The position numbers were made by a program, and so were the translations under genes. Under the pieces are notes generated by a model, which was not told where the DNA came from, made no database searches, and saw nothing but the letters and a program-made list of their open reading frames with translations. Source: Mobula hypostoma (lineage: Eukaryota). From it: DNA of 64,000 nt. The stretch is from the NCBI RefSeq assembly GCF_963921235.1, contig NC_086107.1, positions 116,004,001 to 116,068,000 of the forward strand, written 5' to 3'. Shown here one piece after another: positions 19,401 to 48,342 of the stretch. Within the stretch, counting starts at the first letter, position 1, and each line of letters opens with the position of its first letter.

Positions 19401-20463
19401 GAAGGGATGGGGTCCTGTTGGGAGTGAATGAGTGAATGGATGAATGGGAAGGGGTCGGGGTGGAACTGCTGTCATCTCTGCATGTTTCTGAGATTCCAAT
19501 CTTTGTGAAGGCCAAGTCCAAAGCTGAGGGCAAACGTAAAGTGAAGACTTCCACCCGCACAGCAAAAGCAGGGTAAGTAGCTGGAACTGCAACACAGGAA
19601 GTGGGAACCCGTCCACTCTGAGCACAGTGCGTCCCACCGTGTGGGGAGGAGCGAGTTGAGTGGACCGAGGTGACAAACCAGGTGGGGGGGGTGAAATCAG
19701 GGACAGGGGGACTGAGGGGAGAGCGGAGCGGGGAGGGGGAAGGGGGATGTGGGGACTGAAGGGAGGGGGAAGGGGGACCGAGGGGACAGCGGAGGGGGGA
19801 GGGGGGCCGAGGGGAGGGAGAAGGGGAATGGGGGGGGACTGAGGAGAGGGGGATGGGGGGGCGGAGGGGGAAGGGGGCCGAGGGGAGAGCAGAGGGGAAG
19901 GGGGGCTAAGGGGAGGGGGAAGGGGGCGGAGGGGGATGGGGGACTGAGGGGAGGGGGAAGGGGGATGGGGGGACTGAGGGGAGGGGGAAGGGGGATGGGG
20001 GGGACTGAGGGGAGGGGGAAGGGGGGACCGAGGGGAGAGCAGAGGGGGAAGGGGGGCCGAGTGGAGGGGGATGGGGGGACTGAGGGGAGGGGGAAGGGAA
20101 AGGGGAGGCCGAGGGGAGAGCAGAGGGGGATGGGGGGACCGAGGGGAGGGGGAAGAGGGATGGGGGGACTGAGGGAAGGGGAAGGGGGATGAGGGGACTG
20201 AGGGGAGAGTGGGTCCACACCGTCCCGTTACGTATTCCTTGGAGACCGAGGGGAAGTGGGAGACTGGGGAGAGGTTTGGAACCCCTGGGGAAGAGTGCAG
20301 TGGGGTGCAGACCAAGGGTGGGGAGGAAAGTTGGCTGAGGGTTCCATTAAGAGGAAGTGCGGGTTGAGGTTGGAGATGAGGCTGTTATGGATGCATCTCC
20401 ACTGGACATACTGATCCAGACTGTCTGACCCACAGGCCGAAGGAACGTACAACCCAGCCTTGA
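1427..20463 (+). CDS. Uncharacterised spliced gene, 12 coding exons (1427-1468, 1894-2006, 3999-4065, 4293-4389, 12714-12833, 13366-13709, 14003-14046, 14589-14634, 16439-16547, 19117-19265, 19493-19572, 20436-20463); about 412 aa, N-terminal signal peptide/anchor then a low-complexity Pro/Lys/Ser/Glu-rich region
   Basis: Every exon is bounded by AG/GT, mostly with polypyrimidine tracts. Intron phases 0,2,0,1,1,0,2,0,1,0,2 join into one open frame of 1239 nt: [35 protein letters not shown]...[21 protein letters not shown]...[11 protein letters not shown]...[15 protein letters not shown]...GPKERTTQP*. The ATG has A at -3 and an in-frame stop lies upstream. Confidence 0.8.
1894..2006 (+). CDS. 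Orphan gene exon 2 ([37 protein letters not shown])
   Basis: ctcccacag acceptor, gttagt donor, phase 0 to 2; completes the hydrophobic segment. Confidence 0.75.
2060..3963 (+). repeat. 52-bp minisatellite, same family, filling intron 2 of the orphan gene
   Basis: More than 35 tandem near-identical copies. Confidence 0.97.
3999..4065 (+). CDS. Orphan gene exon 3 ([22 protein letters not shown])
   Basis: ttttcttgcag acceptor, gtctgt donor, phase 2 to 0. Confidence 0.75.
4293..4389 (+). CDS. Orphan gene exon 4 ([32 protein letters not shown])
   Basis: ctccctgcag acceptor, gtgaga donor, phase 0 to 1. Confidence 0.78.
4500..5060 (-). mobile_element. Degenerate Rex/Babar-type LINE 3' fragment
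   Basis: Minus-strand remnants ([18 protein letters not shown], ttcaggaacagt) parallel the better preserved copy at 9901-11040. Confidence 0.65.
5060..9900 (+). mobile_element. Rex/Babar-type LINE 3' fragment split by an internal minisatellite expansion
   Basis: Left flank NFYRY.VES...AQD.LKLQRV and right flank [20 protein letters not shown]...FRNNFF are colinear with ORF 9901..10434. Confidence 0.75.
5177..9600 (+). repeat. Composite 13/18-bp minisatellite (cacatccctccgt / cacgacacatccctccgt), about 4.4 kb
   Basis: Direct reading; source of the spurious H/T/P/S-rich ORFs. Confidence 0.97.
9901..11040 (-). mobile_element. Rex1/Babar-clade LINE ORF2 fragment (RT and C-terminus), frameshifted
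   Basis: [60 protein letters not shown] and FRNSFFP are spread over three frames. Confidence 0.9.
11060..11510 (+). mobile_element. Degenerate CR1 LINE 3' fragment
   Basis: ttggtcagaccacacttggaatat (LVRPHLEY), ctgaggagtgacct and gagctgccagaggaagtgg remnants typical of the CR1 ORF2 3' end. Confidence 0.7.
12150..12595 (+). repeat. About 60-bp minisatellite (gagcagtgggactgtgcatgtgcaggctggggagtggagcccgacgggagagggga), about 7 copies
   Basis: Direct reading. Confidence 0.92.
12714..12833 (+). CDS. Orphan gene exon 5 ([39 protein letters not shown])
   Basis: Pyrimidine tract then gacag acceptor, gtaagg donor, 120 nt, phase 1 to 1. Confidence 0.78.
13366..13709 (+). CDS. Orphan gene exon 6, proline-rich (..[42 protein letters not shown])
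   Basis: Long pyrimidine tract, cagcagcag acceptor, gtaaag donor; overlaps ORF 13416..13727; phase 1 to 0. Confidence 0.8.
14003..14046 (+). CDS. Orphan gene exon 7 ([14 protein letters not shown])
   Basis: tctctgtttctgacag acceptor, gtaagt donor, phase 0 to 2; required to keep the downstream exons in frame. Confidence 0.75.
14190..14512 (+). repeat. 18-bp pyrimidine minisatellite (ccctccatccctctatat)
   Basis: Direct reading. Confidence 0.92.
14589..14634 (+). CDS. Orphan gene exon 8 ([15 protein letters not shown])
   Basis: cctcctgacag acceptor, gtgagt donor, phase 2 to 0. Confidence 0.75.
14715..15010 (+). repeat. Tandem duplication of a G-rich unit of about 160 bp
   Basis: ggggatgacatacagggagaaaggggttggagaagg...ggtttaggggagtga occurs twice, about 162 bp apart. 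Confidence 0.85.
15135..16140 (-). mobile_element. CR1 LINE 3' fragment
   Basis: Minus-strand [18 protein letters not shown] (degenerate FADDTK), [24 protein letters not shown]; 3' tail near 15140. Confidence 0.88.
16439..16547 (+). CDS. Orphan gene exon 9, basic ([36 protein letters not shown])
   Basis: cccctgcag acceptor, gtactg donor, phase 0 to 1. Confidence 0.75.
16620..16760 (+). mobile_element. Penelope-like element terminal remnant with a degenerate hammerhead motif
   Basis: cagtc-ccgatga-aggctcttggccc-agaac-ctc-gactg follows the minimal hammerhead layout found in Penelope-like repeats. Confidence 0.55.
16780..17345 (-). mobile_element. CR1 LINE 3' fragment(s)
   Basis: [54 protein letters not shown]. 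Confidence 0.85.
17345..17880 (+). repeat. Polypurine (G/A) low-complexity tract
   Basis: Direct reading. Confidence 0.85.
18511..19047 (-). repeat. 52-bp minisatellite family, inverted orientation, about 10 copies
   Basis: Reverse complement of the 530-3963 unit. Confidence 0.95.
19117..19265 (+). CDS. Orphan gene exon 10 ([49 protein letters not shown])
   Basis: ccttccatag acceptor, gtaaca donor, phase 1 to 0; lies within ORF 19068..19427. Confidence 0.78.
19493..19572 (+). CDS. Orphan gene exon 11, Lys-rich ([26 protein letters not shown])
   Basis: tttctgag acceptor (weak GAG), gtaagt donor, phase 0 to 2. Confidence 0.7.
19685..20210 (+). repeat. G-rich low-complexity repeat (gggggactgaggggagggggaagggggat)
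   Basis: Direct reading; dense runs of four to seven G. Confidence 0.88.
20436..20463 (+). CDS. Orphan gene terminal coding exon (PKERTTQP*)
   Basis: acccacag acceptor; the phase-2 join gives TGA at 20461-20463. Confidence 0.55.
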
Positions 20464-20789
20464 AGAGCAGCAGGAACACAAAGGTTGTTGGTGAGAAGCT
20501 CACTCGGCCATCCCCTCGAATCAACAGGACACTGGTTGTGCAGGGTGTGCACTTGATCAGAGTCTTCCTCTCTCCCCAGGTGGGGCTGAGTCTGATCGAT
20601 AGAAAATTACATTCGGATTTAGCCTGGAATTTTATTGTGGACTGTGGACACTCCATATGAGAATGAAATGTGATCATTACTCAATGCTTCCAGTTTTCAC
20701 TGACCCTCGTAATGACTGAGAGAAGGGGGGTGAGGTGTAGGAGTGGTGACTTTGTCATCTCTCTTTCTCTTTACCACTCACTCCCCTAT

Positions 20790-23700
20790 CCCCTCCATAT
20801 GTAACGCTGTTCCCTCCTCCCACCATATGTAACACTCCACCGTACATAACGTTTCCCTGTCCTCTCCCCGTACGTAACGTTCCCCTCCTCTCCCTGTACG
20901 TAACACTCCCCCCGTCCTCTCCCCATACGTAACACTCCTCCATACATAACGTTACCCCGTCCTCTCCCCGTACGTGACGCTCCCCCGTCCTCTCCCCGTA
21001 CGTAACACTCCCCCGTCCTCTCCCCGTACGTGACGCTCCCCTGTCCTCTCCCCATACGTAACACTCCTCCGTCCTCTCCCCGTACGTAACACTGGGAGAG
21101 GACAGGGGGAGTGTTACGTACGGGGAAGAGGCAGGGGAGTGTTGAGGACGGGAGAGTGTCCTCTCCCCGTACGTAACACTCCCCTGCCTCTCCCCCGTCC
21201 TCTCACCGTACATAACACTCCCCCATACATAACGTTCCCCTGTCCTCTCCCCGTACGTAACGCTCCCGTCCTCTCTCCGAATGTAACGCTCCCCTGTCCT
21301 CTCTCCATACATAACCCTCCCCCGTCCTCTCCCGATACGTAATGCTCCCCTGCTCCCCTCCCCTGCCTCTCCCCATACGTAACGCTCCCCCGTCCTCTCC
21401 CCGTACGTAACGCTCCCCTGCCTCTCCCCGTACGTAACGCTCCCCCGTCCTCTCCCCGTACGTAACGCTCCCCCGTCCTTTCCCTGTACGTAACGCTCCC
21501 CCGTCCTCTCCCTGTACGGAATGCTCCCCCATCCTCTCCCCGTACATAACGCTCCCCTGTCCTCTCCCCATATGTGACACTCCCCCCGTCCTCTCCCCAT
21601 ACGTAACATTCCTCCATACATAACGTTCCCCCTTACGTAACACTCCCCTGTACATAACGTTCCCCTGTCCTCTCCCCGTACGTGACGCTCCCCCGTCCTC
21701 TCCCCGTACGTGATGCTCCCCCCGTCCTCTCCCAGTGTTACGTACGGGGAAGAGGCAGGGGAGTGTTGAGGACGGGGGAGTGTCCTCTCCCCGTACGTAA
21801 CGCTCCCCTGCCTCTCCCCCGTCCTCTCACCGTACATAACACTCCCCCATACATAACGTTCCCCTGTCCTCTCCCCGTACGTAACGCTCCCGTCCTCTCT
21901 CCGTATGTAACGCTCCCCTGTCCTCTCTCCATACATAACCCTCCCCCGTCCTCTCCCGATACGTAACGCTCCCCCGTCCTCTCCCCGTACGTAACGCTCC
22001 CCCGCCTCTCCCCATACGTAACGCTCCCCCGTCCTCTCCCCATACGTAACGCTCCCCTGCCTCTCCCCGTACGTAACGCTCCCCCGCCCTCTCCCCATAC
22101 GTAACGCTCCCCCATCCTTTCCCTGTACGTAACGCTCCCCCGTCCTCTCCCCGTACGTAATGCTCCCCCGTCCTCTCCCCGTACGTAACGCTCCCCCGTC
22201 CTCTCCCCATATGTGACACTCCCCCCGTCCTCTCCCCATACGTAACATTCCTCCATACATAACGTTCCCCCTTACGTAACACTCCCCTGTACATAACGTT
22301 CCCCCGTCCTCTCCCCGTACGTGACGCTCCCCCGTCCTCTCCCCGTACGTGACGCTCCCCCGTCCTCTCCCCATACGTAACACTCCTCCGTCCTCTCCCC
22401 GTACGTAACACTGGGAGAGGACGGGGGGAGTGTTACGTACGGGGAAGAGGCAGGGGAGTGTTGAGGACGGGGGAGTGTCCTCTCCCCGTACGTAACGCTC
22501 CCCTGCCTCTCCCCCGTCCTCTCACCGTACATAACACTCCCCCATACATAACGTTCCCCTGTCCTCTCCCCGTACGTAACGCTCCCGTCCTCTCTCCGTA
22601 TGTAACGCTCCCCTGTCCTCTCCCCATATGTAACGCTCCCCCGTCCTCTCCCGATACGTAACGCTCCCCCGTCCTCTCCCCATACGTGCTCCCCTGTCCT
22701 CTCCCCATACGTAATGCTCCCCCGTCCTCTCCCCGTACGTAACGCTCCCGTCCTCTCTCCGTATGTAACGCTCCCCTGTCCTCTCCCCATACGTGACACT
22801 CCCCCGTCCTCTCCCTGTACGTAATGCTCCCCATCCTCTCCCCGTATGTAACGCTCCCCCGTCCTCTCCCCGTACGTAACACTCCCCCGTCCTCTCCCCG
22901 TACGTGACGCTCCCCCTGTCCTCTCCCCGTGCGTGACGCTCCCCCTGTCCTCTCCCCGTACGTAACGCTCCCCTGCCTCTCCCCCGTACGTAACGCTCCC
23001 CCCGTCATCTCCCCATATGTGACACTCCCCCCATCCTTTCCCCATACGTAACACTCCTCCATACATAACGTTCCCCCGTACGTAACACTCCCCTGTACAT
23101 AACGTTCCCCTGTCCTCTCCCCGTACGTGACGCTCCCCCGTCCTCTCCCCGTACGTGATGCTCCCCCCGTCCTCTCCCCGTACGTGACGCTCCCCCCGTC
23201 CTCTCCCCGTACGTAACACTCCTCCGTCCTCTCCCCGTACGTAACACTGGGAGAGGACAGGGCGAGTGTTAAGTACGGGGAAGAGGCAGGGGAGTGTTGA
23301 GGACGGGGGAGTGTTGAGGACGGGGGAGTGTTGAGGACGGGGGAGTGTCCTCTTCCCGTACGTAACACTCCCCTGCCTCTCCCCCGACCTCTCACCGTAC
23401 ATAACACTCCCCCATACATAACGCTCCCCCGTCCTCTCCCCGTACGTGACGTCCCCCCGTCCTCTCCCCGTACGTGACGCTCCTCCATCCTTTCCCCGTA
23501 TGTGACACTCTCCCCGTACGTGACGCTCACCCCGTCCTCTCCCTGTGCGTGACACTCCCCTGCCTCTCCCCGTACGTGACACTCCCCCGTCCTCTCCCAG
23601 TACGTAACACTCCCCTGCCTCTCCCCGTACGTAACGCTCCCCGTCTTCTCCCCATACGTGACACTCCCCCATCCTCTCCCCGTTCGTAACGCGCCCCCTG

Positions 23701-26700
23701 TCCTCTCCCCATACGTGACGCTCCCCCGTCCTCTCCCCGTACGTAACGCTCCCCATCCTCTCCCCATACGTGACACTCCCCCGTCCTCTCCCCGTTCATA
23801 ACACACCCCTGCGTCTCCCCGTATGTAACGCTCCCCCGTCCTCTCCCCGTGCGTAATGCTCCCCCTGTCCTCTCCCCGTACATAACAATCCCCCTGTCCT
23901 CTCCCCGTACATAACACTCCCCCATCCTCTCCCCGTACGTAACACTCCCCCGTCCTCTCCCCGTACATGACGCTCCCCCCGTCCTCTCCCCGTACGTAAC
24001 GCTCCCCCCGTCCTCTCCCCGTAGGTGACACTCCCCCGTCCTCTCCCCGTACGTAACGCTCCCCCTGTCCTCTCCCCCGTCCTCACCCCGTACGTAACGC
24101 TCCCCCGTCCTCTCCCCATACATAACACACCTCCACACATAACGTTCCCCAGTCCTCTCCCCGTACGTAACACTCCCCCGTACATAACGTTACCGTCCTC
24201 TCCCCGTACGTGACGCTCCCCCGTCCTCTCCCCGTACGTGACGCTCCCCCGTCCTCTCCCCGTACGTGATGTCCCCCCGTCCTCTCCCCGCAGGCGACGC
24301 TCCCCCCGTCCTCTCCCCGTACGTGACACTCCCCCGTCCTCTCCCCGTACATAACGCTCCCCTGTCCTCTCCCCGTACGTGACGCTCCCCCGTCCTCTCC
24401 CCGTACGTGACGCTCCCCCCGTCCTCTCCCCGTACGTAACACTCCTCCGTCCTCTCCCCGTACGTAACACTGGGAGAGGACGGGGAGCGTTACGTACGGG
24501 GAAGAGGCAGGGGAGTGTTGAGGACGGGGGAGTGTCCTCTCCCCGTACGTAACACTCCCCTGCCTCTCCCCCGTCCTCTCACCGTACATAACACTCCCTC
24601 ATACATAACGTTCCCCTGTCCTCTCCCCGTACGTAACGCTCCCGTCCTCTCTCCGAATGTAACGCTCCCCTGTCCTCTCTCCATACATAACCCTCCCCCG
24701 TCCTCTCCCGATACGTAACGCTCCCCCGTCCTCAACGCTCCCCTGCCTCTCCCCATACGTAATGCTCCCCCGTCCTCTCCCCGTACGTAACGCTCCCCTG
24801 CCTCTCCCCGTACGTAACGCTCCCCCGTCCTCTCCCCGTACGTAACGCTCCCCCGTCCTTTCCTGTACGTAACGCTCCCCCGTCCTCTCCCTGTACGGAA
24901 TGCTCCCCCATCCTCTCCCCGTACATAACGCTCCCCTGTCCTCTCCCCATATGTGACACTCCCCCCGTCCTCTCCCCATACGTAACATTCCTCCATACAT
25001 AACGTTCCCCCTTACGTAACACTCCCCTGTACATAACGTTCCCCTGTCCTCTCCCCGTACGTGACGCTCCCCCGTCCTCTCCCCGTACGTGACGCTCCCC
25101 CCGTCCTCTCCCAGTGTTACGTACGGGGAAGAGGCAGGGGAGTGTTGAGGACGGGAGAGTGTCCTCTCCCCGTACGTAACACTCCCCTGCCTCTCCCCCG
25201 TCCTCTCAAAGTACATAACACTCCCCCATACATAACGTTCCCCTGTCCTCTCCCCGTACGTAACGCTCCCGTCCTCTCTCCGTATGTAACGCTCCCCTGT
25301 CCTCTCTCCATACATAACCCTCCCCCGTCCTCTCCCGATACGTAACGCTCCCCCGTCCTCAACGCTCCCCTGCCTCTCCCCATACGTAATGCTCCCCCGT
25401 CCTCTCCCCGTACGTAACGCTCCCGTCCTCTCTCCGTATGTAACGCTCCCCTGTCCTCTCCCCATACGTGACACTCCCCCGTCCTCTCCCTGTACGTAAT
25501 GCTCCCCCGTCCTCTCCCCGTACGTAACGCTCCCCCGTCCTCTCCCCGTACGTAACACTCCCCCGTCCTCTCCCCGTACGTGACGCTCCCCCTGTCCTCT
25601 CCCCGTACGTGACGCTCCCCCTGTCCTCTCCCCGTACGTAACGCTCCCCTGCCTCTCCCCGTACGTAACGCTCCCCCCGTCATCTCCCCATATGTGACAC
25701 TCCCCCCGTCCTCTCCCCATACGTAACATTCCTCCATACATAACGTTCCCCCGTACGTAACACTCCCCTGTACATAACGTTCCCCTGTCCTCTCCCCGTA
25801 CGTGACGCTCCCCCGTCCTCTCCCCATACGTGACGCTCCCCCCGTCCTCTCCCCGTACGTGACGCTCCCCCCGTCCTCTCCCCGTACGTAACACTCCTCC
25901 GTCCTCTCCCCGTACGTAACACTGGGAGAGGACAGGGCGAGTGTTACGTACGGGGAAGAGGCAGGGGAGTGTTGAGGACGGGGGAGTGTCCTCTCCCCGT
26001 ACGTAACACTCCCCTGCCTCTCCCCCGACCTCTCACCGTACATAACACTCCCCCATACATAACGCTCCCCCGTCCTCTCCCCGTACGTGACGTCCCCCCG
26101 TCCTCTCCCCGTACGTGACGCTCCTCCATCCTTTCCCCGTATGTGACACTCTCCCCGTACGTGACGCTCCCCCCGTCCTCTCCCTGTGCGTGACACTCCC
26201 CTGCCTCTCCCCGTACGTGACACTCCCCCGTCCTCTCCCAGTACGTAACACTCCCCGTCCTCTCCCCGTACGTAACGCTCCCCGTCCTCTCCCCATACGT
26301 GACACTCCCCCGTCCTCTCCCTGTACGTAACACTCCCCTGCCTCTCCCCGTACGTAACGCTCCCCCGTCCTCTCCCCGTTCATAACACACCCCTGCGTCT
26401 CCCCGTATGTAACGCTCCCCCGTCCTCTCCCCGTACGTAACTCTCCCCCTGTCCTCTCCCCGTACGTAACACTCCCCCTGTCCTCTCCCCGTACGTAACG
26501 CTCCCCCCGTCCTCTCCCCATACGTAACATTGCTCCATACATAACGTTCCCCCGTACGTAACACTCCCCTGTACATAACGTTCCCCTGTCCTCTCCCCGT
26601 ACGTGACGCTCCCCCGTCCTCTCCCCGTACGTGACGCTCCCCCCGTCCTCTCCCAGTGTTACGTACGGGGAAGAGGCAGGGGAGTGTTGAGGACGGGGGA

Positions 26701-29700
26701 GTGTCCTCTCCCCGTACGTAACACTCCCCTGCCTCTCCCCCGTCCTCTCACCGTACATAACACTCCCCCATACATAACGTTCCCCTGTCCTCTCCCCGTA
26801 CGTAACGCTCCCGTCCTCTCTCCGTATGTAACGCTCCCCTGTCCTCTCCCCATACGTAACCCTCCCCCGTCCTCTCCCCGTACGTAATGCTCCCCCGTCC
26901 TCTCCCCGTACGTAACACTCCCCTGCCTCTCCCCATACGTAACGCTCCCCCGTCCTCTCCCCGTACGTAACGCTCCCCCTGTCCTCTCCCCGTACGTAAC
27001 GCTCCCCCGTCCTCTCCCCGTACGTAACGCTCCCCCGTCCTCTCCCCGTACGTAACGCTCCCCCGTCCTCTCCCCGTACGTAATGCTCCCCCGTCCTCTC
27101 CCCGTACGTAACGCTCCCCCTGTCCTCTCCCCATATGTGACACTCCCCCCGTCCTCTCCCCATACGTAACATTCCTCCATACATAACGTTCCCCCTTACG
27201 TAACACTCCCCTGTACATAACGTTCCCCCGTCCTCTCCCCGTACGTGACGCTCCCCCGTCCTCTCCCCGTACGTGACGCTCCCCCCGTCCTCTCCCAGTG
27301 TTACGTACGGGGAAGAGGCAGGGGAGTGTTGAGGACGGGAGAGTGTCCTCTCCCCGTACGTAACACTCCCCTGCCTCTCCCCCGTCCTCTCACCGTACAT
27401 AACACTCCCCCATACATAACGTTCCCTTGTCCTCTCCCCGTACGTAACGCTCCCGTCCTCTCTCCGTATGTAACGCTCCCCTGTCCTCTCCCCATACGTA
27501 ACGCTCCCCCGTCCTCTCCCCGTACGTAACGCTCCCCCGTCCTCTCCCCATACATGACGCTCCCCGGTCCTCTCCCCATACGTAACACTCCCCCGTCCTC
27601 TCCCCGTACGTAACACTCTCCCGTACGTGACGCTCCCCCGTTCTCTCCCCATACGTAACACTCTTCCGTCCTCTCCCCGTACGTAATGCTCCCCGTCCTC
27701 TCCCCGTACGTAACGCTCCCCCGTCCTCTCCCCGTACGTAACACTCCCCCGTCCTCTCCCCGTACGTAACGCTCCCCCTGTCCTCTCCCCGTACGTAACG
27801 CTCCCCCTGTCCTCTCCCCGTACGTAACGCTCCCCTGCCTCTCCCCGTACGTAACGCTCCCCCGTCATCTCCCCATATGTGACACTCCCCATACGTAACA
27901 TTGCTCCATATATAACGTTCCCCCGTACGTAACACTCCCCTGTACATAACGTTCCCCTGTCCTCTCCCCGTACGTGACGCTCCCCGTCCTCTCCCCGTAC
28001 GTGACGCTCCCCCCGTCCTCTCCCCGTACGTGACGCTCCCCCCGTCCTCTCCCCGTACGTAACACTCCTCCGTCCTCTCCCCGTACGTAACACTGGGAGA
28101 GGACAGGGCGAGTGTTACGTACGGGGAAGAGGCAGGGGAGTGTTGAGGACGGGGGAGTGTTGAGGACGGGGGAGTGTTGAGGACGGGGGAGTGTCCTCTC
28201 CCCGTACGTAACACTCCCCTGCCTCTCCCCCGACCTCTCACCGTACATAACACTCCCCCATACATAACGCTCCCCCGTCCTCTCCCCGTACGTGACGTCC
28301 CCCCGTCCTCTCCCCGTACGTGACGCTCCTCCATCCTTTCCCCGTATGTGACACTCTCCCCGTACGTGACGCTCACCCCGTCCTCTCCCTGTGCGTGACA
28401 CTCCCCTGCCTCTCCCCGTACGTGACACTCCCCCGTCCTCTCCCAGTACGTAACACTCCCCTGCCTCTCCCCGTACGTAACGCTCCCCGTCCTCTCCCCA
28501 TACGTGACACTCCCCCGTCCTCTCCCTGTACGTAACACTCCCCTGCCTCTCCCCGTACGTAACGCTCCCCCGTCCTCTCCCCATACGTAACGCTCCCCGT
28601 CCTCTCCCCATACGTGACACTCCCCCGTCCTCTCCCCGTACGTAACGCTCGCCTGCCTCTCCGCCGTCCTCTCCCCGTACGTAACGCTCCCCCGTCCTCT
28701 CCCCGTGCGTAACGCTCCCCCTGTCCTCTCCCCGTACATAACAATCCCCCTGTCCTCTCCCCGTACGTAACACTCCCCCGTCCTCTCCCCGTACGTAACA
28801 CTCCCCCGTCCTCTCCCCATACGTAACGCTCCCCCGTCCTCTCCCCGTACGTAACGCTCCCCCTGTCCTCTCCCCGTACGTAACACTCCCCCGTCCTCTC
28901 CCCGTACGTAACGCTCCCCCTGTCCTCTCCCCCGTCCTCACCCCGTACGTAACGCTCCCCCCGTCCTCTCCCCATACATAACACACCTCCACACATAACG
29001 TTCCCCAGTCCTCTCCCCGTACGTAACACTCCCCCGTACATAACGTTACCGTCCTCTCCCCGTACGTGACGCTCCCCCGTCCTCTCCCCGTACGTGACGC
29101 TCCCCCGTCCTCTCCCCGTACGTGACGTCCCCCCGTCCTCTCCCCGTACGTGACGCTCCCCCCGTCCTCTCCCCGTACGTGACACTCCCCCGTCCTCTCC
29201 CCGTACATAACGCTCCCCTGTCCTCTCCCCGTACGTAACGCTCCCCCGTCCTCTCCCCGTACGTGACGCTCCCCCCGTCCTCTCCCAGTGTTACGTACGG
29301 GGAAGAGGCAGGGGAGTGTTGAGGACGGGAGAGTGTCCTCTCCCCGTACGTAACACTCCCCTGCCTCTCCCCCGTCCTCTCACCGTACATAACACTCCCT
29401 CATACATAACGTTCCCCTGTCCTCTCCCCGTACGTAACGCTCCCCCGTCCTCTCCCCGTACGTAACGCTCCCCCTGTCCTCTCCCCGTACGTAACGCTCC
29501 CCTGTCCTCTCCCGGTACGTAACACTCCCCCGTCCTCTCCCCGTACGTAACGCTCCCCTGCCTCTCCCCGTACGTAACGCTCCCCCGTCCTCTCCCTGTA
29601 CGTAACACTCCCCTGCCCCTCCCCGTCCTCTCCCCGTACGTAACACTCCCCCGTCCTCTCACCGTACGTAACACTCCGTCCGTCCCTGTACGTAACGCTC

Positions 29701-32700
29701 CCCCCGTCCTCTCCCCGTACGTAATGCTCCCCCGTCCTCTCCCCGTACGTAACGCTCCCCTGTCCTCTCCCCATATGTAACACTCCCCCGTCCACTCCCC
29801 ATACGTAACATTCCTCCATACATAACGTTCCCCCGTACGTAACACTCCCCTGTACATAACGTTCCCCTGTCCTCTCCCCGTACGTGACGCTCCCCCGTCC
29901 TCTCCCCGTACGTGACGCTCCCCCCGTCCTCTCCCAGTGTTACGTACGGGGAAGAGGCAGGGGAGTGTTGAGGACGGGAGAGTGTCCTCTCCCCGTACGT
30001 AACACTCCCCTGCCTCTCCCCCGTCCTCTCACCGTACATAACACTCCCCCATACATAACGTTCCCCTGTCCTCTCCCCGTATGTAACGCTCCCGTCCTCT
30101 CTCCGTATGTAACGCTCCCCTGTCCTCTCCCCATACGTAACGCTCCCCCGTCCTCTCCCCGTACGTAACGCTCCCCCGTCCTCTTCCCCCGTACGTAACG
30201 CTCCCCGTCCTCTCCCCATACGTAATGCTCCCCCGTCCTCTCCCCGTACGTAACGCTCCCGTCCTCTCTCCGTATGTAACGCTCCCCTGTCCTCTCCCCA
30301 TACGTGACACTCCCCCGTCCTCTCCCCGTACGTAATGCTCCCCCGTCCTCTCCCCGTACGTAACGCTCCCCCGTCCTCTCCCCGTACGTAACACTCCCCC
30401 GTCCTCTCCCCGTACGTGACGCTCCCCCTGTCCTCTCCCCGTTCGTAACGCTCCCCCTGTCCTCTCCCCATACGTGACGCTCCCCCGTCCTCTCCCCGTA
30501 CGTAACGCTCCCCCGTCCTCTCCCCGTACGTAACGCTCCCCCGTCCTCTCCCCGTACGTAACACTCCCCCGTCCTCTCCCCATACGTGACGCTCCCCCCG
30601 TCCTCTCCCCGTACGTGACGCTCCCCCGTCCTCTCCCCGTACGTAACACTCCTCCGTCCTCTCCCCGTACGTAACACTGGGAGAGGACAGGGCGAGTGTT
30701 ATGTACGGGGAAGAGGCAGGGGAGTGTTGAGGACGGGGGAGTGTCCTCGCCCCGTACGTAACACTCCCCTGCCTCTCCCCCGACCTCTCACCGTACATAA
30801 CACTCCCCCATACATAACGCTCCCCCGTCCTCTCCCCGTACGTGACGTCCCCCCGTCCTCTCCCCGTACGTGACGCTCCTCCATCCTTTCCCCGTATGTG
30901 ACACTCTCCCCGTACGTGACGCTCCCCCCGTCCTCTCCCTGTGCGTGACACTCCCCTGCCTCTCCCCGTACGTGACACTCCCCCGTCCTCTCCCAGTACG
31001 TAACACTCCCCTGCCTCTCCCCGTACGTAACGCTCCCCGTCCTCTCCCCATACATGACACTCCCCCGTCCTCTCCCTGTACGTAACACTCCCCTGCCTCT
31101 CCCCGTACGTAACGCTCCCCCGTCCTCTCCCCGTTCATAACACACCCCTGCGTCTCCCCGTATGTAACGCTCCCCCGTCCTCTCCCCGTGCGTAATGCTC
31201 CCCCTGTCCTCTCCCCGTACATAACAATCCCCCTGTCCTCTCCCCGTACATAACACTCCCCCATCCTCTCCCCGTACGTGACGCTCCCCCCGTCCTCTCC
31301 CCGTACGTAACGCTCCCCCCGTAGGTGACACTCCCCCGTCCTCTCCCCATACGTAACGCTCCCCCTGTCCTCTCCCCCGTCCTCTCCCCGTACGTAACGC
31401 TCCCCCCGTCCTCTCCCCATATGTGACACTCCTCCCGTCCTCTCTCCATACATAACACACCTCCACACATAACGTTCCCCAGTCCTCTCCCCGTACGTAA
31501 CACTCCCCCGTACATAACGTTACCGTCCTCTCCCCGTACGTGACGCTCCCCCGTCCTCTCCCCGTACGTGACGCTCCCCCGTCCTCTCCCCGTACGTGAT
31601 GTCCCCCCGTCCTCTCCCCGCAGGTGACGCTCCCCCCGTCCTCTCCCCGTACGTGACAATCCCCTGCCTCTCCCCGTACGTGACACTCCCCCGTCCTCTC
31701 CCCGTACATAACGCTCCCCGTCCTCTCCCCGTACGTAACACTGGGAGAGGACGGGGAGCGTTACGTACGGGGAAGAGGCAGGGGAGTGTTGAGGACGGGG
31801 GAGTGTCCTCTCCCCGTACGTAACACTCCCCTGCCTCTCCCCCGACCTCTCACCGTACATAACACTCCCCCATACATAACGTTCCCCCGTCCTCTCCCCG
31901 TACGTGACGTCCCCCCGTCCTCTCCCTGTGCGTGACACTCCCCTGCCTCTCCCCGTACGTGACACTCCCCCGTCCTCTCCCAGTACGTAACACTCCCCTG
32001 CCTCTCCCCGTACGTAACGCTCCCCCGTCCTCTCCCCATACGTGACACTCCCCCATCCTCTCCCTGTACGTAACACTCCCCTGCCCCTCCCCCGTCCTCT
32101 CCCCGTACGTAACGCTCCCCGTCCTCTCCCCGTACGTAACGCTCCCCCGTCGTCTCCCCATACGTGATACTCCCCCGTACATAACGTTCCCCTGTCTTCT
32201 CCCCGTACGTGACGCTCTCCCGTCCTCTCCCCGTACGTGACGCTCCCCCGTCCTCTCCCCATACGTAACACTCCTCCGTCCTCTCCCCGTACGTAACACT
32301 GGGAGAGGACGGGGGGAGTGTTACGTACGAGGAAGAGGCAGGACAGTGTTGAGGACGGGGGAGTGTCCTCTCCCTGTACGTAACACTCCCCTGCCTCTCC
32401 CACGTCCTCTCACCGTACATAATACTCACCCATACATAACGTTCCCCTGTCCTCTCCCCGTATGTAACGCTCCCGTCCTCTCTCCGTATGTAACGCTCCC
32501 CTGTCCTCTCCCCGTATGTAACGCTCCCGTCCTCTCTCCGTACGTAACGCTCCCCTGTCTTCTCCCCATACGTGATACTCCCCCGTCCTCTCCCTGTACG
32601 TAATGCTCCCTCGTCCTCTCCCCGTACGTAACGCTCCCCCTGTCCTCTCCCCGTACGTAACACTCCCCGTCCTCTCCCCGTACGTAACACTCCGCCGTCC

Positions 32701-35700
32701 TCTCCCCGTACGTAACACTCCGCCGTCCTCTCCCCGTACGTAACGCTCCCCCGTCCTCTCCCCGTACGTGACGCTCCCCCGTCCTCTCCCCGTACGTGAT
32801 GTCCCCCCGTCCTCTCCCCGCAGGTGACGCTCCCCCCGTCCTCTCCCCGTACGTGACAATCCCCTGCCTCTCCCCGTACGTGACACTCCCCCGTCCTCTC
32901 CCCGTACATAACGCTCCCCGTCCTCTCCCCGTACGTAACACTCCCCCGTCCTCTCCCTGTACCTAACGCTCCCCTGTCCTCTCCCGGTACGTAACACTCC
33001 CCCGTCCTCTCCCCGTACGTGACGCTCCCCCCGTCCTCTCCCCGTACGTAACACTCCTCCGTCCTCTCCCCGTACGTAACACTGGGAGAGGACGGGGAGC
33101 GTTACGTACGGGGAAGAGGCAGGGGAGTGTTGAGGACGGGGGAGTGTCCTCTCCCCGTACGTAACACTCCCCTGCCTCTCCCCCGACCTCTCACCGTACA
33201 TAACACTCCCCCATACATAACGTTCCCCCGTCCTCTCCCCGTACGTGACGTCCCCCCGTCCTCTCCCTGTGCGTGACACTCCCCTGCCTCTCCCCGTACG
33301 TGACACTCCCCCGTCCTCTCCCAGTACGTAACACTCCCCTGCCTCTCCCCGTACGTAACGCTCCCCTGTCCTCTCCCGGTACGTAACACTCCCCTGCCTC
33401 TCCCCGTACGTAACGCTCCCCGTCCTCTCCCCATACGTGACACTCCCCCGTCCTCTCACCGTACGTAACACTCCCCCGTCCTCTCACCGTACATAACACT
33501 CCCCCGTACGTAACACTCCCCCGTCCTCTCACCGTACGTAACACTCCCCCGTCCTCTCCCCGTACGTAACGCTCCCCTGCCTCTCCCCGTACGTAACGCT
33601 CCCCCGTCGTCTCCCCATACGTGATACTCCCCCCGTACATAACGTTCCCCTGTCTTCTCCCCGTACGTGACGCTCTCCCGTCCTCTCCCCGTACGTGACG
33701 CTCCTCCGTCCTCTCCCCGTACGTAACACTGGGAGAGGACGGGGGGAGTGTTACGTACGAGGAAGAGGCAGGACAGTGTTGAGGACGGGGGAGTGTCCTC
33801 TCCCTGTACGTAACACTCCCCTGCCTCTCCCACGTCCTCTCACCGTACATAATACTCACCCATACATAACGTTCCCCTGTCCTCTCCCCGTATGTAACGC
33901 TCCCGTCCTCTCTCCGTATGTAACGCTCCCCTGTCCTCTCCCCGTATGTAACGCTCCCGTCCTCTCTCCGTACGTAACGCTCCCCTGTCTTCTCCCCATA
34001 CGTGATACTCCCCCGTCCTCTCCCTGTACGTAATGCTCCCTCGTCCTCTCCCCGTACGTAACGCTCCCCCTGTCCTCTCCCCGTACGTAACACTCCCCGT
34101 CCTCTCCCCGTACGTAACACTCCGCCGTCCTCTCACCGTACGTAACACTCCCCCGTCCTCTCCCCGTACGTGACGCTCCCCCTGTCCTCTCCCCGTACGT
34201 AACGCTCCCCTGCCTCTCCCCGTACGTAACGCTCCCCCCGTCATCTCCCCATATGTGACACTCCCCCCGTCCTCTCCCCATACGTAACATTGCTCCATAC
34301 ATAACGTTCCCCCGTACGTAACACTCCCCTGTACATAACGTTCCCCTGTCCTCTCCCCGTACGTGACGCTCCCCCGTCCTCTCCCCATACGTGACGCTCC
34401 CCCCGTCCTCTCCCCGTACGTGACGCTCCCCTGCCTCTCCCCCGACCTCTCACCGTACATAACACTCCCCCATACATAACGCTCCCCCGTCCTCTCCCCG
34501 TACGTGACGTCCCCCCGTCCTCTCCCGTGCGTGACACTCCCCTGCCTCTCCCCGTACGTAACGCCCCCCGTACTCTCCCCATACGTAACGCTCCCCCGTC
34601 CTCTCCCCGTACCTAACGCTCCTCCGTCCTCTCCCCGTACGTAACACTCCCCCTGTCCTCTCCCCATACGTAATGCTCCCTGTCCTCTCCCCATACGTGA
34701 CACTCCCCCGTCCTCTCCCTGTACGTAACACTCCCCTGCCTCTCCCCCGTCCTCTCCCCGTACGTAACGCTCCCCCTGTCCTCTCCCCGTATGTAACACT
34801 CCCCCGTCCTCTCCCCGTACGTAACGCTCCCCCGTCCTCTCACCGTACGTAACACTCCCCCGTCCTCGACGCTCCCCCCGTCCTCTCCCCGTACGTAATG
34901 CTCCCCCTGTCCTCTCCCCCGTCCTCTCCCCGTACGTAACGCTCCCCTGCCTCTCCCCGTACGTAACGCTCCCCCCGTCCTCTCCCCATATGTGACACTC
35001 CCCCCGTCCACTCCCCATACGTAACATTCCTCCATACATAACGTTCCCCCTTACGTAACACTCCCCTGTACGTAACGTTCCCCCGTCCTCTCCCCGTACG
35101 TGACGCTCCCCCGTCCTCTCCCCGTACGTAACACTGGGAGAGGACGGGGGGAGTGTTACGTACGGGGAAGAGGCAGGGCAGTGTTGAGGACTGGGGAGTG
35201 TCCTCTCCCCATACGTAACACTCCCCTGCCTCTCCCACGTCCTCTCACCGTACATAATACTCCCCCATACATAACGTTCCCTTGTCCTCTCCCCGTATGT
35301 AACGCTCCCGTCCTCTCTCCGTATGTAACGCTCCCCTGTCCTCTCCCCATACGTAACGCTCCCCCGTCCTCTGCCCATACGTAACCCTCCCCCGTCCTCT
35401 CCTTCGTACGTAACGCTCCCCCGTCCTCTCCCCGTACGTAATGCTCCCCGTCCTCTCCCCGTATGTAACGCTCCCCCGTCCTCTCCCCATATGTAACACT
35501 CCCCTGCCTCTCCCCATACATAATGCTCCCCCGTCCTGTCCCCCGTACGTAACGCTCCCCCGTCCTCTCCCCGTACGTAACGCTCCCCCGTCCTCTTCCC
35601 CCGTACGTAACACTCCCCCGTCCTCTCCCCGTACGTAATGCTCCCCTGTCCTCTCCCTGTATGTAACGCTCCCCTGCCTCTCCCCATACGTAATGCTCCC

Positions 35701-38700
35701 CCGTACGTAACGCTCCCCCGTCCTCTCCCCATACATGACGCTCCCCCGTCCTCTCCCCATACGTAACACTCCCCCGTCCTCTCCCCGTACGTAACACTCT
35801 CCCCGTACGTGACGCTCCCCCGTCCTCTCCCCATACGTAACACTCCCCCGTCCTCTCCCCGTTCATAACACACCCCTGCGTCTCTCCGTATGTAACGCTC
35901 CCCCGTCCTCTCCCCGTACGTAACGCTCCCCCTGTCCTCTCCCCGTACGTAACGCTCCCCCTGTCCTCTCCCCGTACGTAACACTCCCCCGTCCTCTCCC
36001 CGTACGTAACACTCCCCCGTCCTCTCCCCGTACGTAACGCTCCCCCCGCAGGTGACACTCCCCCGTTCTCTCCCCGTACGTAACGCTCCCCCTGTCCTCT
36101 CCCCCGTCCTCACCCCGTACGTAACGCTCCCCCCGTCCTCTCCCCATACGTAACACTCCTCCATACATAACGTTCCGCAGTCCTCTCCCCGTACGTAACA
36201 CTCCCCCGTACATAACGTTACCGTCCTCTCCCCGTACGTGACGCTCCCCCGTCCTCTCCCCGTACGTGACGCTCCCCCGTCCTCTCCCCGTACGTGACGC
36301 TCCCCCCGTCCTCTCCCCGTACGTAACGCTCCCCCCGTCCTCTCCCCGTACGTGACACTCCCCCGTCCTCTCCCCGTACGTAACGCTCCCCTGTCCTCTC
36401 CCCGTACGTGACGCTCCCCCCGTCCTCTCCCAGTGTTACGTACGGGGAAGAGGCAGGGGAGTGTTGAGGACGGGAGAGTGTCCTCTCCCCGTACGTAACA
36501 CTCCCCTGCCTCTCCCCCGTCCTCTCACCGTACATAACACTCCCTCATACATAACGTTCCCCTGTCCTCTCCCCGTATGTAACGCTCCCGTCCTCTCTCC
36601 GTATGTAACGCTCCCCTGTCCTCTCCCCGTACGTAACGCTCCTCCTGTCCTCTCCCCGTACGTAACGCTCCCCCGTCCTCTCCCCATACGTGACACTCCC
36701 CCGTCCTCTCCCCGTACGTAATGCTCCCCCGTCCTCTCCCCGTACGTAACGCTCCCCCTGTCCTCTCCCCGTACGTAACACTCCCCCGTCCTCTCCCCGT
36801 ACGTAACACTCCCCCGTCCTCTCCCCGTACGTAACACTCCCCTGTCCTCTCCCCGTACGTAACGCTCCCCCGTCCTCTCCCCGTACGTGACGCTCCCCCG
36901 TCCTCTCCCCGTACGTGACATCCCCCCGTCCTCTCCCCGTACGTGACGCTCCCCCCGTCCTCTCCCCGTACGTGACACTCCCCCGTCCTCTCCCCGTACG
37001 TGACACTCCCCCGTCCTTTCCCCGTACATAACGCTCCCCGTCCTCTCCCCGTACGTAACACTCCCCCGTCCTCTCCCTGTACCTAACGCTCCCCTGTCCT
37101 CTCCCGGTACGTAACACTCCCCCGTCCTCTCCCCGTACGTGACGCTCCCCCCGTCCTCTCCCCGTACGTAACACTCCTCCGTCCTCTCCCCGTACGTAAC
37201 ACTGGGAGAGGACGGGGAGCGTTACGTACGGGGAAGAGGCAGGGGAGTGTTGAGGACGGGGGAGTGTCCTCTCCCCGTACGTAACACTCCCCTGCCTCTC
37301 CCCCGACCTCTCACCGTACATAACACTCCCCCATACATAACGTTCCCCCGTCCTCTCCCCGTACGTGACGTCCCCCCGTCCTCTCCCTGTGCGTGACACT
37401 CCCCTGCCTCTCCCCGTACGTGACACTCCCCCGTCCTCTCCCAGTACGTAACACTCCCCTGCCTCTCCCCGTACGTAACGCTCCCCTGTCCTCTCCCGGT
37501 ACGTAACACTCCCCTGCCTCTCCCCGTACGTAACGCTCCCCGTCCTCTCCCCATACGTGACACTCCCCCGTCCTCTCCCTGTACGTAACACTCCCCTGCC
37601 CCTCCCCCGTCCTCTCCCCGTACGTAACACTCCCCCGTCCTCTCACCGTACGTAACACTCCCCCGTCCTCTCCCCGTACCTCTCCCCCTGTCCTCTCCCC
37701 GTCCTCTCCCCGTACGTAACGCTCCCCTGCCTCTCCCCGTACGTAACGCTCCCCCGTCGTCTCCCCATACGTGATACTCCCCCCGTACATAACGTTCCCC
37801 TGTCTTCTCCCCGTACGTGACGCTCTCCCGTCCTCTCCCCGTACGTGACGCTCCCCCGTCCTCTCCCCGTACGTAACACTGGGAGAGGACGGGGGGAGTG
37901 TTACGTACGAGGAAGAGGCAGGACAGTGTTGAGGACGGGGGAGTGTCCTCTCCCTGTACGTAACACTCCCCTGCCTCTCCCACGTCCTCTCACCGTACAT
38001 AATACTCACCCATACATAACGTTCCCCTGTCCTCTCCCCGTATGTAACGCTCCCGTCCTCTCTCCGTATGTAACGCTCCCCTGTCCTCTCCCCGTACGTA
38101 ACGCTCCCGTCCTCTCTCCGTACGTAACGCTCCCCTGTCTTCTCCCCATACGTGATACTCCCCCGTCCTCTCCCTGTACGTAATGCTCCCTCGTCCTCTC
38201 CCCGTACGTAACGCTCCCCCTGTCCTCTCCCCGTACGTAACACTCCCCGTCCTCTCCCCGTACGTAACACTCCCCCGTCCTCTCCCCGTACGTAACACTC
38301 CCCCGTCCTCTCCCCGTACGTGACGCTCCCCCTGTCCTCTCCCCGTACGTAACGCTCCCCTGCCTCTCCCCGTACGTAACGCTCCCCCGTCCTCTCCCCG
38401 TACGTGACGCTCCCCCCGTCCTCTCCCCATACGTAACATTGCTCCATACATAACGTTCCCCCGTACGTAACACTCCCCTGTACATAACGTTCCCCTGTCC
38501 TCTCCCCGTACGTGACGCTCCCCTGCCTCTCCCCCGACCTCTCACCGTACATAACACTCCCCCATACATAACGCTCCCCCGTCCTCTCCCCGTACGTGAC
38601 GTCCCCCCGTCCTCTCCGTGCGTGACACTCCCCTGCCTCTCCCCGTACGTAACGCCCCCCGTACTCTCCCCATACGTAACGCTCCCCCGTCCTCTCCCCG

Positions 38701-41700
38701 TACCTAACGCTCCCCCGTCCTCTCCCCGTACGTAACACTCCCCCTGTCCTCTCCCCATACGTAATGCTCCCTGTCCTCTCCCCATACGTGACACTCCCCC
38801 GTCCTCTCCCTGTACGTAACACTCCCCTGCCTCTCCCCCGTCCTCTCCCCGTACGTAACGCTCCCCCTGTCCTCTCCCCGTATGTAACACTCCCCCGTCC
38901 TCTCCCCGTACGTAACACTCCCCCGTCCTCTCACCGTACGTAACACTCCCCCGTCCTCTCCCCGTACGTTACGCTCCCCCGTCCTCTCCCCGTACGTAAC
39001 GCTCCCCCTGTCCTCTCCCCCGTCCTCTCCCCGTACGTAACGCTCCCCTGCCTCTCCCCGTACGTAACGCTCCCCCGTCCTCTCCCCATATGTGACACTC
39101 CCCCCGTCCACTCCCCATACGTAACATTCCTCCATACATAACGTTCCCCCTTACGTAACACTCCCCTGTACGTAACGTTCCCCCGTCCTCTCCCCGTACG
39201 TGACGCTCCCCCGTCCTCTCCCCGTACGTAACACTGGGAGAGGACGGGGGGAGTGTTACGTACGGGGAAGAGGCAGGGTAGTGTTGAGGACTGGGGAGTG
39301 TCCTCTCCCCATACGTAACACTCCCCTGCCTCTCCCACGTCCTCTCACCGTACATAATACTCCCCCATACATAACGTTCCCTTGTCCTCTCCCCGTACGT
39401 AACGCTCCCCCGTCCTCTTTCCGTATGTAACGCTCCCCTGTCCTCTCCCCATACGTAACGCTCCCCCGTCCTCTGCCCATACGTAAGCCTCCCCCGTCCT
39501 CTCCTTCGTACGTAACGCTCCCCCGTCCTCTCCCCGTACGTAATGCTCCCCCGTCCTCTCCCCGTACGTAACGCTCCCCCGTCCTCTCCCCATATGTAAC
39601 ACTCCCCTGCCTCTCCCCATACATAATGCTCCCCCGTCCTCTCCCCGTACGTAACGCTCCCCCGTCCTCTCCCCGTACGTAACGCTCCCCCGTCCTCTCC
39701 CCGTACGTAACACTCCCCCGTCCTCTCCCCGTACGTAATGCTCCCCTGTCCTCTCCCTGTATGTAACGCTCCCCTGCCTCTCCCCATACGTAATGCTCCC
39801 CCGTACGTAACGCTCCCCCGTCCTCTCCCCATACATGACGCTCCCCGGTCCTCTCCCCATACGTAACACTCCCCTGCCTCTCCCCGTACGTAACGCTCCC
39901 CCGTCCTCTCCCCGTACGTAACGCTCCCCATCCTCTCCCCATACGTGACACTCCCCCGTCCTCTCCCCGTACGTAACACTCCCCTGCGTCTCCCCGTATG
40001 TAACGCTCCCCCGTCCTCTCCCCGTACGTAACACTCCCCCTGTCCTCTCCCCGTACGTAACACTCCCCCTGTCCTCTCCCCGTACGTAACACTCCCCCGT
40101 CCTCTCCCCGTACGTAACACTCCCCCGTCCTCTCCCCGTACGTAACGCTCCCCCCGTCCTCTCCCCGTAGGTGACACTCCCCCGTCCTCTCCCCGTACGT
40201 AACGCTCCCCCTGTCCTCTCCCCTGTCCTCACCCCGTACGTAACGCTCCCCTGCCTCTTCCCCGTCCTCTCCCCGTACGTAACGCTCCCCCCGTCCTCTC
40301 CCCATATGTGACACTCCTCCCGTCCTCTCTCCATACATAACACACCTCCACACATAACGTTCCCCAGTCCTCTCCCCGTACGTAACACTCCCCCGTACAT
40401 AACGTTACCGTCCTCTCCCCGTACGTGACGCTCCCCCGTCCTCTCCCCGTACGTGACGCTCCCCCGTCCTCTCCCCGTACGTGACGCTCCCCCGTCCTCT
40501 CCCCGTACGTGACGCTCCCCCGTCCTCTCCCCGTACGTAACACTCCCCCGTCCTCTCCCCGTACATAACGCTCCCCTGTCCTCTCCCCGTACGTGACGCT
40601 CCCCCCGTCCTCTCCCAGTGTTACGTACGGGGAAGAGGCAGGGGAGTGTTGAGGACGGGAGAGTGTCCTCTCCCCGTACGTAACACTCCCCTGCCTCTCC
40701 CCCGTCCTCTCACCGTACATAACACTCCCCCATACATAACGTTCCCCCGTCCTCTCCCCGTACGTAACGCTCCCCCGTCCTCTCCCCGTACGTAACGCTC
40801 CCCCGTCCTCTCCCCGTACGTAACACTCCCCCGTCCTCTCCCCATACGTAACACTCCCCCGTCCTCTCCCCGTACGTAACGCTCCCCCGTCCTCTCCCCG
40901 TACGTAACACTCCCCCTGTCCTCTCCCCGTACGTAACGCTCCCCCGTACGTAACGCTCCCCCGTCCTCTCCCCATACGTAACACTCTTCCGTCCTCTCCC
41001 CGTACGTAACGCTCCCCCGTCCTCTCCCCGTACGTAACGCTCCCCCTGTCCTCTCCCCATATGTGACACTCCCCCCGTCCTCTCCCCATACGTAACATTC
41101 CTCCATACATAACGTTCCCCCGTACGTAACACTCCCCTGTACATAACGTTCCCCTGTCCTCTCCCCGTACGTGACGCTCTCCCCGTCCTCCCCCCGTGAC
41201 GTACGCTCTCCCCGTCCTCTCCCGTACGTAACACTCCTCCGTCCTCTCCCCGTACGTAACACTGGGAGAGGACAGGGCGAGTGTTACGTACGGGGAAGAG
41301 GCAGGGGAGTGTTGAGGACGGGCGAGTGTCCTCTCCCTGTACGTAACACTCCCCTGCCTCTCCCCCGACCTCTCCCCGTACATAACGCTTCCCCTGTCCT
41401 CTCCCCGTATGTAACACTCCCCCGTCCTCTCCTCGTACGTGACGCTCCCCCCGTCCTCTCCCCATACGTAACACTCCCCCGTCCTCTCCCCGTACGTGAC
41501 GCTCCCCCGTCCGTAACACTGGGAGAGGACAGGGCGAGTGTTACATACGGGGAAGAGGCAGGGGAGTGTTGAGGACGGGGGAGTGTCCTCTCCCCGTACG
41601 TAACACTCCCCTGCCTCTCCCCCGACCTCTCACCGTACATAACACTCCCCCATACATAACGTTCCCCCGTCCTCTCCCCGTACGTGACGTCCCCCCGTCC

Positions 41701-48170: not shown

Positions 48171-48294
48171 AACAATAGTCAAGACTGTAACTTCTGTGGG
48201 ACGGCTGGGTGGGTCACAGTTAAATGGGGGGGTGGGGGGGAGACAGAAAGTGTGGGGGCAGTGCAGTCAGATGTACTTACCTCACCACAAAGAT

Positions 48295-48342
48295 TCACTC
48301 GTCCTTTGCTGACATCCCCCGCAGGGTGCTTTCGTGACGGAT
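48295..48342 (-). CDS. PITPNB-like: PITP stop-containing exon ([15 protein letters not shown]); the exon continues 14 nt to a gtaagt donor at 48280
   Basis: ttctgacttcag acceptor; RGMSA resembles the class I PITP C-terminal tail; consensus donor follows the stop. Confidence 0.85.
   Translation of the reverse strand: MRHESTLRGMSAKDE

Follow-up and report, generated by a model that had tools for sequence, protein, structure and literature searches.

A 64,000-nucleotide stretch of Mobula hypostoma DNA (contig NC_086107.1, forward-strand positions 116,004,001 to 116,068,000; termed the window and numbered from its first letter) was analysed computationally. It is animal DNA dense in minisatellites, and a C-rich minisatellite or satellite array occupies its plus strand at 20795-42783, the start being taken from the flank junction. 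The array comprises about 710 monomers of 28 bp in about 22 kb; the monomer consists of a 17-nt and an 11-nt subunit, and the monomers are arranged as irregular higher-order units of 0.26-1.4 kb. A short inverted cassette recurs 25 times along the array in two forms, A and B, and inverted bases make up 7.2% of the array. The origin of this cassette and the relation between its two forms are addressed here.

Exon-like pieces of a spliced plus-strand gene (1400-20600, with proline- and lysine-rich exons) reach about 19.5-20.6 kb, and the gene stops just ahead of the array. Exon 13368-13709, the only exon of that gene scanned, gave no Pfam match. Exons of a phosphatidylinositol transfer protein gene lie on the minus strand at 48290-61980; two minus-strand exons at 53.7 and 55.1 kb match PF02121, the phosphatidylinositol transfer protein family, with E = 2.7e-15 and 8.6e-12. 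The introns of this gene are filled with minisatellites, including a 6.5-kb purine-rich array at 55200-61700. Two convergent genes seem to enclose the array, with their 3′ ends facing it. A decayed retrotransposon-like stretch, which we take to be of Tx1/L1 type, is present on the plus strand at 49900-53300; its reverse-transcriptase match (PF00078, near 51.2 kb, E = 0.001) falls under the curated cut-off. One 52-bp minisatellite occurs at five places (562-1213, 2058-3968, 18511-19047, 48420-49240 and 53360-53650), in an orientation that differs between places and with no internal inversion in the four places tested; it presumably resembles the minisatellites of rays and sharks. The observed/expected ratio of CpG in the 28-bp array is 1.26 (2016 CpG), and its minus strand carries 244 loose G-quadruplex motifs with loops of up to 12 nt, only 4 of them with loops of up to 7. 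A high simple-repeat content has been reported for small shark chromosomes (PMC10620051).

A mismatch-tolerant search of the array identified exactly 17 A and 8 B cassettes, in the order ABAAABABBABBAAAAAABAAABAA. An earlier note on this DNA had counted about 17 A and 8 B copies, interleaved, and had described each form by a 48-mer; the count was borne out, and both 48-mers (22397-22444 for A, 25081-25128 for B) are exact. The cassettes are spaced 257-1405 nt apart, with a median of 770. In an orientation scan, 25 reverse blocks were found in this array and none in each of 11 other arrays of the window, and no cassette copy lies outside the array within the window. The inverted tracts all read on the minus strand. 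Those of A with the canonical spacer are located at 22413-22478, 32301-32366, 33731-33796, 35136-35201, 37881-37946 and 39236-39301. Variant spacers are carried by the tracts at 21094-21159 (a variant with a single copy), 25924-25989, 28095-28194, 30679-30744, 41264-41329 and 41521-41586, the last of these following a truncated upstream monomer. The tracts at 28095-28194 and 23249-23348, the latter also of form A, each contain two extra tandem 17-mers. A subtype of A, termed A′, in which the spacer is 2 nt shorter and one arm position is changed, is found at 24472-24535, 31743-31806, 33084-33147 and 37204-37267. The B tracts lie at 21734-21783 (where the left arm has one extra C-to-T change), 25113-25162, 26655-26704, 27297-27346, 29287-29336, 29936-29985, 36432-36481 and 40617-40666.

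The cassette extends beyond the 48-mer: it comprises a head-to-head junction and a tail-to-tail junction, the latter with a hairpin of its own. At the reference A (22397-22444), a 16-nt arm (22397-22412), a 16-nt spacer (22413-22428) and a second 16-nt arm (22429-22444) form the head. The head-to-head junction is at 22412/22413 and the canonical 66-nt tract runs from 22413 to 22478. In the second hairpin (22440-22517) the tract pairs with downstream monomers around an 8-nt loop (22469-22476), and the tail-to-tail junction, with a 2-nt overlap, is at 22477-22478. At the reference B (25081-25128), the left arm and spacer together are an ordinary forward monomer (25081-25112), followed by the right arm (25113-25128). 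The tract is thus 66 nt long in A, 64 nt in A′ and 50 nt in B, and 100 nt in the two copies with extra 17-mers.

The tract aligns entirely to forward monomers. It consists of satellite sequence only, in truncated monomers, with nothing foreign; the canonical A tract corresponds to about 2.5 monomers, including an 11-nt deletion. The tail junction, the 11-nt deletion and a fused downstream monomer are common to all 25 copies. The copies therefore descend from one event, and the shared features are older than the amplification of the cassette. In two copies, a 17-mer of the inverted tract is tandemly expanded (23289-23348 and 28135-28194), as if a new reverse-orientation minisatellite were starting.

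Folding was computed for single strands only. Compared with shuffled sequences, the folds of segments with a cassette reach z = -9.7 to -15.6, and that of a plain array segment z = -1.65. Two adjacent hairpins are predicted, at -60 kcal/mol for A, -46 for B and -68 for the A′ at 31743, compared with -6.6 for plain array. The fold proposed earlier for A, a 16-bp stem around a 16-nt loop, is not the one preferred in context, where the 'spacer' is predicted to pair with the upstream monomer. Such an alternative register is expected because a fold-back junction in a tandem array offers several registers.

The earlier note had described A as a perfect 16-bp inverted repeat and B as its isomer with an exactly flipped spacer. 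The perfect arms of A and the exact flip of the spacer each hold for part of the copies. The A arms are perfect in 7 of 17 copies, with one mismatch in 9 and two in 1. The B spacer, identical in all eight copies, is the exact reverse complement of only 6 among the 17 spacers of A; the remaining 11 fall into three variants of 6, 4 and 1 copies, so that A has four spacer types in all. The arms of B are never perfect, with 2 mismatches over 16 positions in 7 copies and 3 in the remaining one. The left arm and spacer of B correspond to an ordinary forward monomer type with 30 copies among the roughly 710, the 8 B included. None of the 8 B copies carries the left arm of A, from which their own left arm departs at 2-3 positions in every copy. 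Neither canonical A nor any of the three variant A spacers has an exactly flipped counterpart in the array. A and B are not exact isomers; they differ beyond the orientation of the spacer.

The two forms are nevertheless related by spacer inversion, and the B junction is the reverse complement of the A junction. In an exhaustive four-point fit, a single switch of order 1-3-4-2 turns B (27297) into A (39236) with no residual difference and replaces 16 linear edits. The earlier proposals of an origin by template switching and of a flipped spacer are supported. The reverse fit, from A (39236) to B (27297), leaves 2 residual differences in that context. When two particular monomers lie upstream, a 1-3-2-4 switch converts A into B with residual 0 and the loss of 55-57 nt; the monomer needed for it is found within 105 nt of 8 of the 17 A copies. 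The route from B is length-neutral and accounts for the better arms of A, and the route from A fits the greater diversity of A and its presence at both ends of the array. The balance tips only very slightly towards B as the ancestral form.

The four A′ copies differ from canonical A by a G run 2 nt shorter and one substitution, and each of these changes agrees with a forward monomer type present in 12 copies. At the A′ of 31743, the first 21 nt (31743-31763) and the adjoining upstream forward monomer (31709-31729) are perfectly reverse-complementary. One 3-2-1-4 switch from canonical A to A′ covers three edits with residual 0, the ancestor being constructed from slices of the window. It is rather likely that A′ arose once, by a third switch of the classical arm-homogenising kind.

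Turnover of the array is evident at the scale of its units. Exact duplications of 200-559 nt are found 1.2-8.9 kb apart, which is ordinary unit-scale turnover, and the later amplification of both forms is supported. Four exact repeats (559, 241, 207 and 202 nt) recur 4.1 kb apart (32899-37578 and 34624-39280), which suggests that about 4.1 kb of the array was recently duplicated. The cassette is absent from 2 of 27 higher-order units. Both of these keep the downstream signature of the others. The first unit start (34428, within 34416-34454, plus strand) has a sister, the unit at 25924, that retains a cassette; the second (38520, within 38508-38546, plus strand) lies about 4.1 kb past the first. 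Two downstream markers unrelated to the flip occur in all four combinations (17, 5, 2 and 1 copies). This indicates exchange between units at this scale, and recombination alone can therefore mix the flanks of A and B.

Taken together, the cassette is probably a neutral and mostly historical structure formed in four steps. In the first, a template switch in a short ancestral array would have copied about 2.5 monomers from the opposite strand. Return about 10 nt downstream of the end of the copy would leave the tract able to pair with the downstream monomers around the 8-nt loop, and both junctions may have been set by overlaps of a few nucleotides (3 at the head, 2 at the tail), which the near-palindromic core of the monomer would favour. 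In the second, one further inter-strand switch would have turned the 16-nt head loop, either from B to A, with spacer inversion and arm homogenisation at constant length, or from A to B, with loss of two monomers. The third step is the one documented in the array: cassette-bearing units of 0.26-1.4 kb multiplied by unequal exchange and slippage, which also recombined the markers on either side and occasionally deleted a cassette. In the fourth, a fold-back switch may have copied the upstream forward monomer into the tract, on the rather likely assumption that A′ arose in this way once. The cassette needs no function under this history and none is indicated. The three switch-point orders are all among the types observed in genomes (PMC5453318). 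By the fit test, the cassette is assigned to the class of short-range template switches, although its ancestor was not found.

Some leads to the head junction and to the donor were recorded. A forward monomer variant ending in CCCAGT (for instance 23592-23601, plus strand) provides a 3-nt AGT/ACT overlap exactly at the phase of the head junction. It has 9 copies, at 23592, 26233, 28438, 30988, 31975, 33316, 37436, 41700 and 42395, and 8 of the 9 come after the monomer type that is next in the order of the tract itself. This amounts to one coincidence at about the 10% level and serves as a lead only. The same holds for the donor scan of B, in which four of the eight best windows show the 1-3-4-2 order, three of these four lying in the CCCAGT-bearing unit. 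The forward monomers at 24730 and 25357, which have the 11-nt deletion of the tract, were considered as donor relics and dropped, as the deletion recurs at 34864. An originally longer perfect palindrome was also considered and was not confirmed; no intact downstream dimer was found.

A single event probably separates A and B. All 8 B copies fall in one downstream haplogroup, which holds 3 of the 17 A (Fisher p = 1.5e-4, copies being non-independent), and none of the 9 copies with a GACC downstream marker is a B. On a tree of the flanks the A/B label is clustered, only 7-8 of 500 shuffles giving a value as low. The flank phylogeny suggested earlier as a check does not return B as a single clade. 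With one left monomer, one spacer and one haplogroup in all B, frequent flipping is unsupported. Flips are therefore far less frequent than duplications of units, and the ongoing 'flip-flop' that had been envisaged does not agree with a single B type and with the lack of mirror images of the 11 variant A spacers.

Several observations weigh against this account. The A/B label requires 4 changes on the downstream-flank tree, single-change trees make up 0% of 200 bootstraps, and the supported branches force at least 2 changes. The B at 21734 and the A at 22413 have an identical 150-nt downstream flank that includes a private substitution, and two different upstream unit types each precede both A and B. 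As to the origin of the tract, no exact forward donor is present among 535 forward windows, where the best donor cost is 5.6 for B (median 10) and 6.9 for A (median 11.5). The 11-nt deletion does not identify the donor, since it is also seen in forward monomers, in two contexts and 3 copies. Finally, the data cover one haplotype of one individual. Recombination explains the mixing of A and B flanks, and repeated conversion would do so too.

Repeated but rare switching is the leading alternative. According to it, the head junction is a standing point of exchange between forward and inverted monomers, A and B changed into each other several times, and the A spacer types are separate flips or conversions that started from different forward monomers. 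The flank tree with its 4 changes and the A/B pair with a common private flank favour it, as does the finding that three of the four spacer types of A have an exact reverse complement among the forward monomer types (with 1, 12 and 6 copies). The perfect 21-bp stem that the A′ at 31743 forms with its neighbour can be read in the same way, and so can the lone forward monomer at 40248-40265, the only one with the extra T typical of the inverted tract, which may represent a transfer from inverted to forward orientation. Parallel and reversible spacer inversions have been reported in yeast (PMC8604942). Against repeated switching, all 8 B are of one type and none lies in the nearer registers that recurrent events should favour. 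None of the 9 GACC copies is a B, though several have a context one step away from it. Recombination is shown independently, and single-step matches are to be expected because the forward monomers are highly varied. Repeated switching is thus considered possible but unlikely. The same doubt attaches to its wider form, in which the cassette would be a standing gateway that passes monomer variants between orientations by repeated template switching in a vertebrate minisatellite, with more than one A/B switch, A′ and the lone forward monomer at 40248 as its traces. One switch between A and B, with flanks mixed by unit exchange, is the reading retained.

The periodic dyads could instead have a part in driving or organising the array, whether they act as nodes of recombination or amplification or are protein-binding hairpins maintained by selection. 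The predicted double hairpins are strong, and the conserved inversion sites of Tribolium satellites have been proposed to be structural (PMC13081366). Copies also vary less over the 120 nt past the cassette (median distance 10.5) than over the flanks of any of the 10 control anchors (14.75-32.4). Linkage between left and right flanks across the cassette (Mantel r = 0.29, p = 0.002), however, lies inside the range at the 10 control anchors (0.02-0.82, median 0.40), and no recombination hotspot was detected at the cassettes in this comparison, whose few anchors give it low power. With linkage in the control range and 2 of 27 units devoid of a cassette, the 'amplification node' of the earlier note is unsupported. 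The spacing of cassettes varies 5.5-fold, arm mismatches are present in 10 of 17 A and in all 8 B, and no Rfam family matches the region 19000-45000. A driving role is accordingly improbable.

An artefact of assembly or consensus has to be considered as well, as the array is of low complexity and GC-rich. In two public runs of one organism (organism A, runs X1 and X2), contigs cross the tail junction and extend more than 31 letters to either side of it (records 7 and 14). Contigs of organism A also hold the A head junction (25 + 55 letters), and an X1 contig holds the B head junction as a 13-letter loose end, both under the 31-letter bridging rule. These contigs are short, and the runs are probably from the source sample. 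The copies carry lineage-specific substitutions that are nested in larger duplications. The contig support and the nested copy-specific substitutions together make an artefact very unlikely. A small mobile element resembling a miniature inverted-repeat transposable element (MITE), inserted 25 times independently, would be short, multicopy and provided with inverted repeats, but it can practically be dismissed, because the tract is wholly satellite-derived, the same fused downstream monomer adjoins it in 25 of 25 copies with no unrelated insertion sites, and the absence of any copy outside the array contradicts it within the window.

The array is also present in a second species. In a 459-nt contig of organism B, the left flank seen here (window 20765-20794) is identical and leads into the same monomer, which places the array at this locus there too. 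Contigs of organism B (runs X5 and X6) gave 4 and 2 records, compared with 419 and 594 for organism A. None covers the cassette-specific segment 22452-22545; contigs as sparse as these can show presence, not absence. One X5 record on 22413-22445 continues as plain reverse monomer.

Paired forms that differ by an inverted segment are known from other systems. The terminal hairpins of parvoviruses, including adeno-associated virus (AAV), exist in flip and flop forms related by inversion of their inner part. Those isomers are terminal and equimolar, and a dedicated nicking protein regenerates them at each replication; the array shows nothing comparable. The flip-flop inversions of plastids resemble the cassette in their short loop, 16-19-bp arms and presence in both orientations (PMC6342102). 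They are single-locus inversions, homoplastic between taxa, which implies recurrence, whereas B looks like one lineage, and the arms of B, unlike theirs, are asymmetric. Two features of a recurrent flip-flop segment, forms that differ in spacer orientation alone and an orientation independent of the flanking haplotype, are both lacking in the cassette.

Template switching provides the closer parallel. Among human-chimpanzee events, types 1-3-4-2, 1-3-2-4 and 3-2-1-4 make up 23%, 45% and 31% (PMC5453318), and the A/B and A/A′ relations fit these known types with residual 0. Spacer inversion is reported to require inter-strand switching, a route that published data favour and that needs no cruciform (PMC5453318). 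In yeast, spacer inversion has been described together with arm homogenisation, with parallel and reversible cases, and a change from B to A would equal the yeast case REG2, in which spacer inversion and arm perfection take place in one event (PMC8604942). In rRNA genes, 69 loop inversions were reported, and inconsistent patterns in multicopy genes were ascribed to recombination (PMC8794818). The present substrate differs from the published cases in being a tandem array, which offers several pairing registers and from which monomers can be lost. Its spacer, at 16 nt, exceeds both the examples from yeast (2-5 substitutions) and the loops of rRNA genes (mostly 4, up to 7-8 nt), and both outcomes stand side by side in 25 paralogous copies, not in different strains.

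Satellites with inverted subunits are a second point of comparison. In Tribolium, inversion junctions of truncated monomers are conserved and amplified, in TmSat1 and TmSat2 of T. madens (PMC13081366) and TfSat01 of T. freemani (10.1101/2024.12.02.626372), and the same papers cite complex monomers of T. brevicornis and T. audax. The cassette is alike in that its junctions involve truncated monomers only, a short-loop hairpin is possible and it was amplified with the array; as in such complex satellites, its inversion junctions are conserved across copies and amplified with the unit. The Tribolium inversions span multi-kb subarrays or take the form of 0.5-0.7-kb subunits, within megabase (peri)centromeric satellites. 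No multi-kb inverted subarray in a region of that kind was found in the window, where tracts of 50-66 nt, or up to 100 nt, lie in a 22-kb array with gene-like exons on its sides, and where the head junction is found in both orientations. The T. freemani text does not use the word 'flip', nor the T. madens text 'template switch'. Change of orientation within tandem arrays is recognised variation in human alpha-satellite arrays and orangutan HSATIII (10.1101/2025.06.15.659631); those inversions concern large blocks or heterogeneous motifs, as opposed to the one propagated micro-inversion described here.

In the literature searched, which leaves out most subscription journals, no description was found of this array, nor of any array in which the two spacer orientations are interleaved. 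Template-switch inversion of spacers has already been published, as have satellites containing inverted subunits; what the present array adds is the interleaving of both forms in one vertebrate minisatellite. The cassette arrangement is real, well preserved and unusual, and its mechanisms are known ones. It shows the capture of a 50-66-nt template-switch inversion by a growing array, in which it became a landmark of the higher-order unit, with the states before and after a spacer inversion kept in one haplotype. The array thereby offers a clean small-scale model of the way in which inverted-subunit satellites arise, and a warning that interleaved A and B copies alone do not imply ongoing flipping. 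If the gateway reading were true, the 25 copies per allele would serve as an in-vivo reporter of the germline rate of template switching relative to that of unit duplication. Should new flips occur, they would give a direct measure of a process usually inferred from comparisons between species only.

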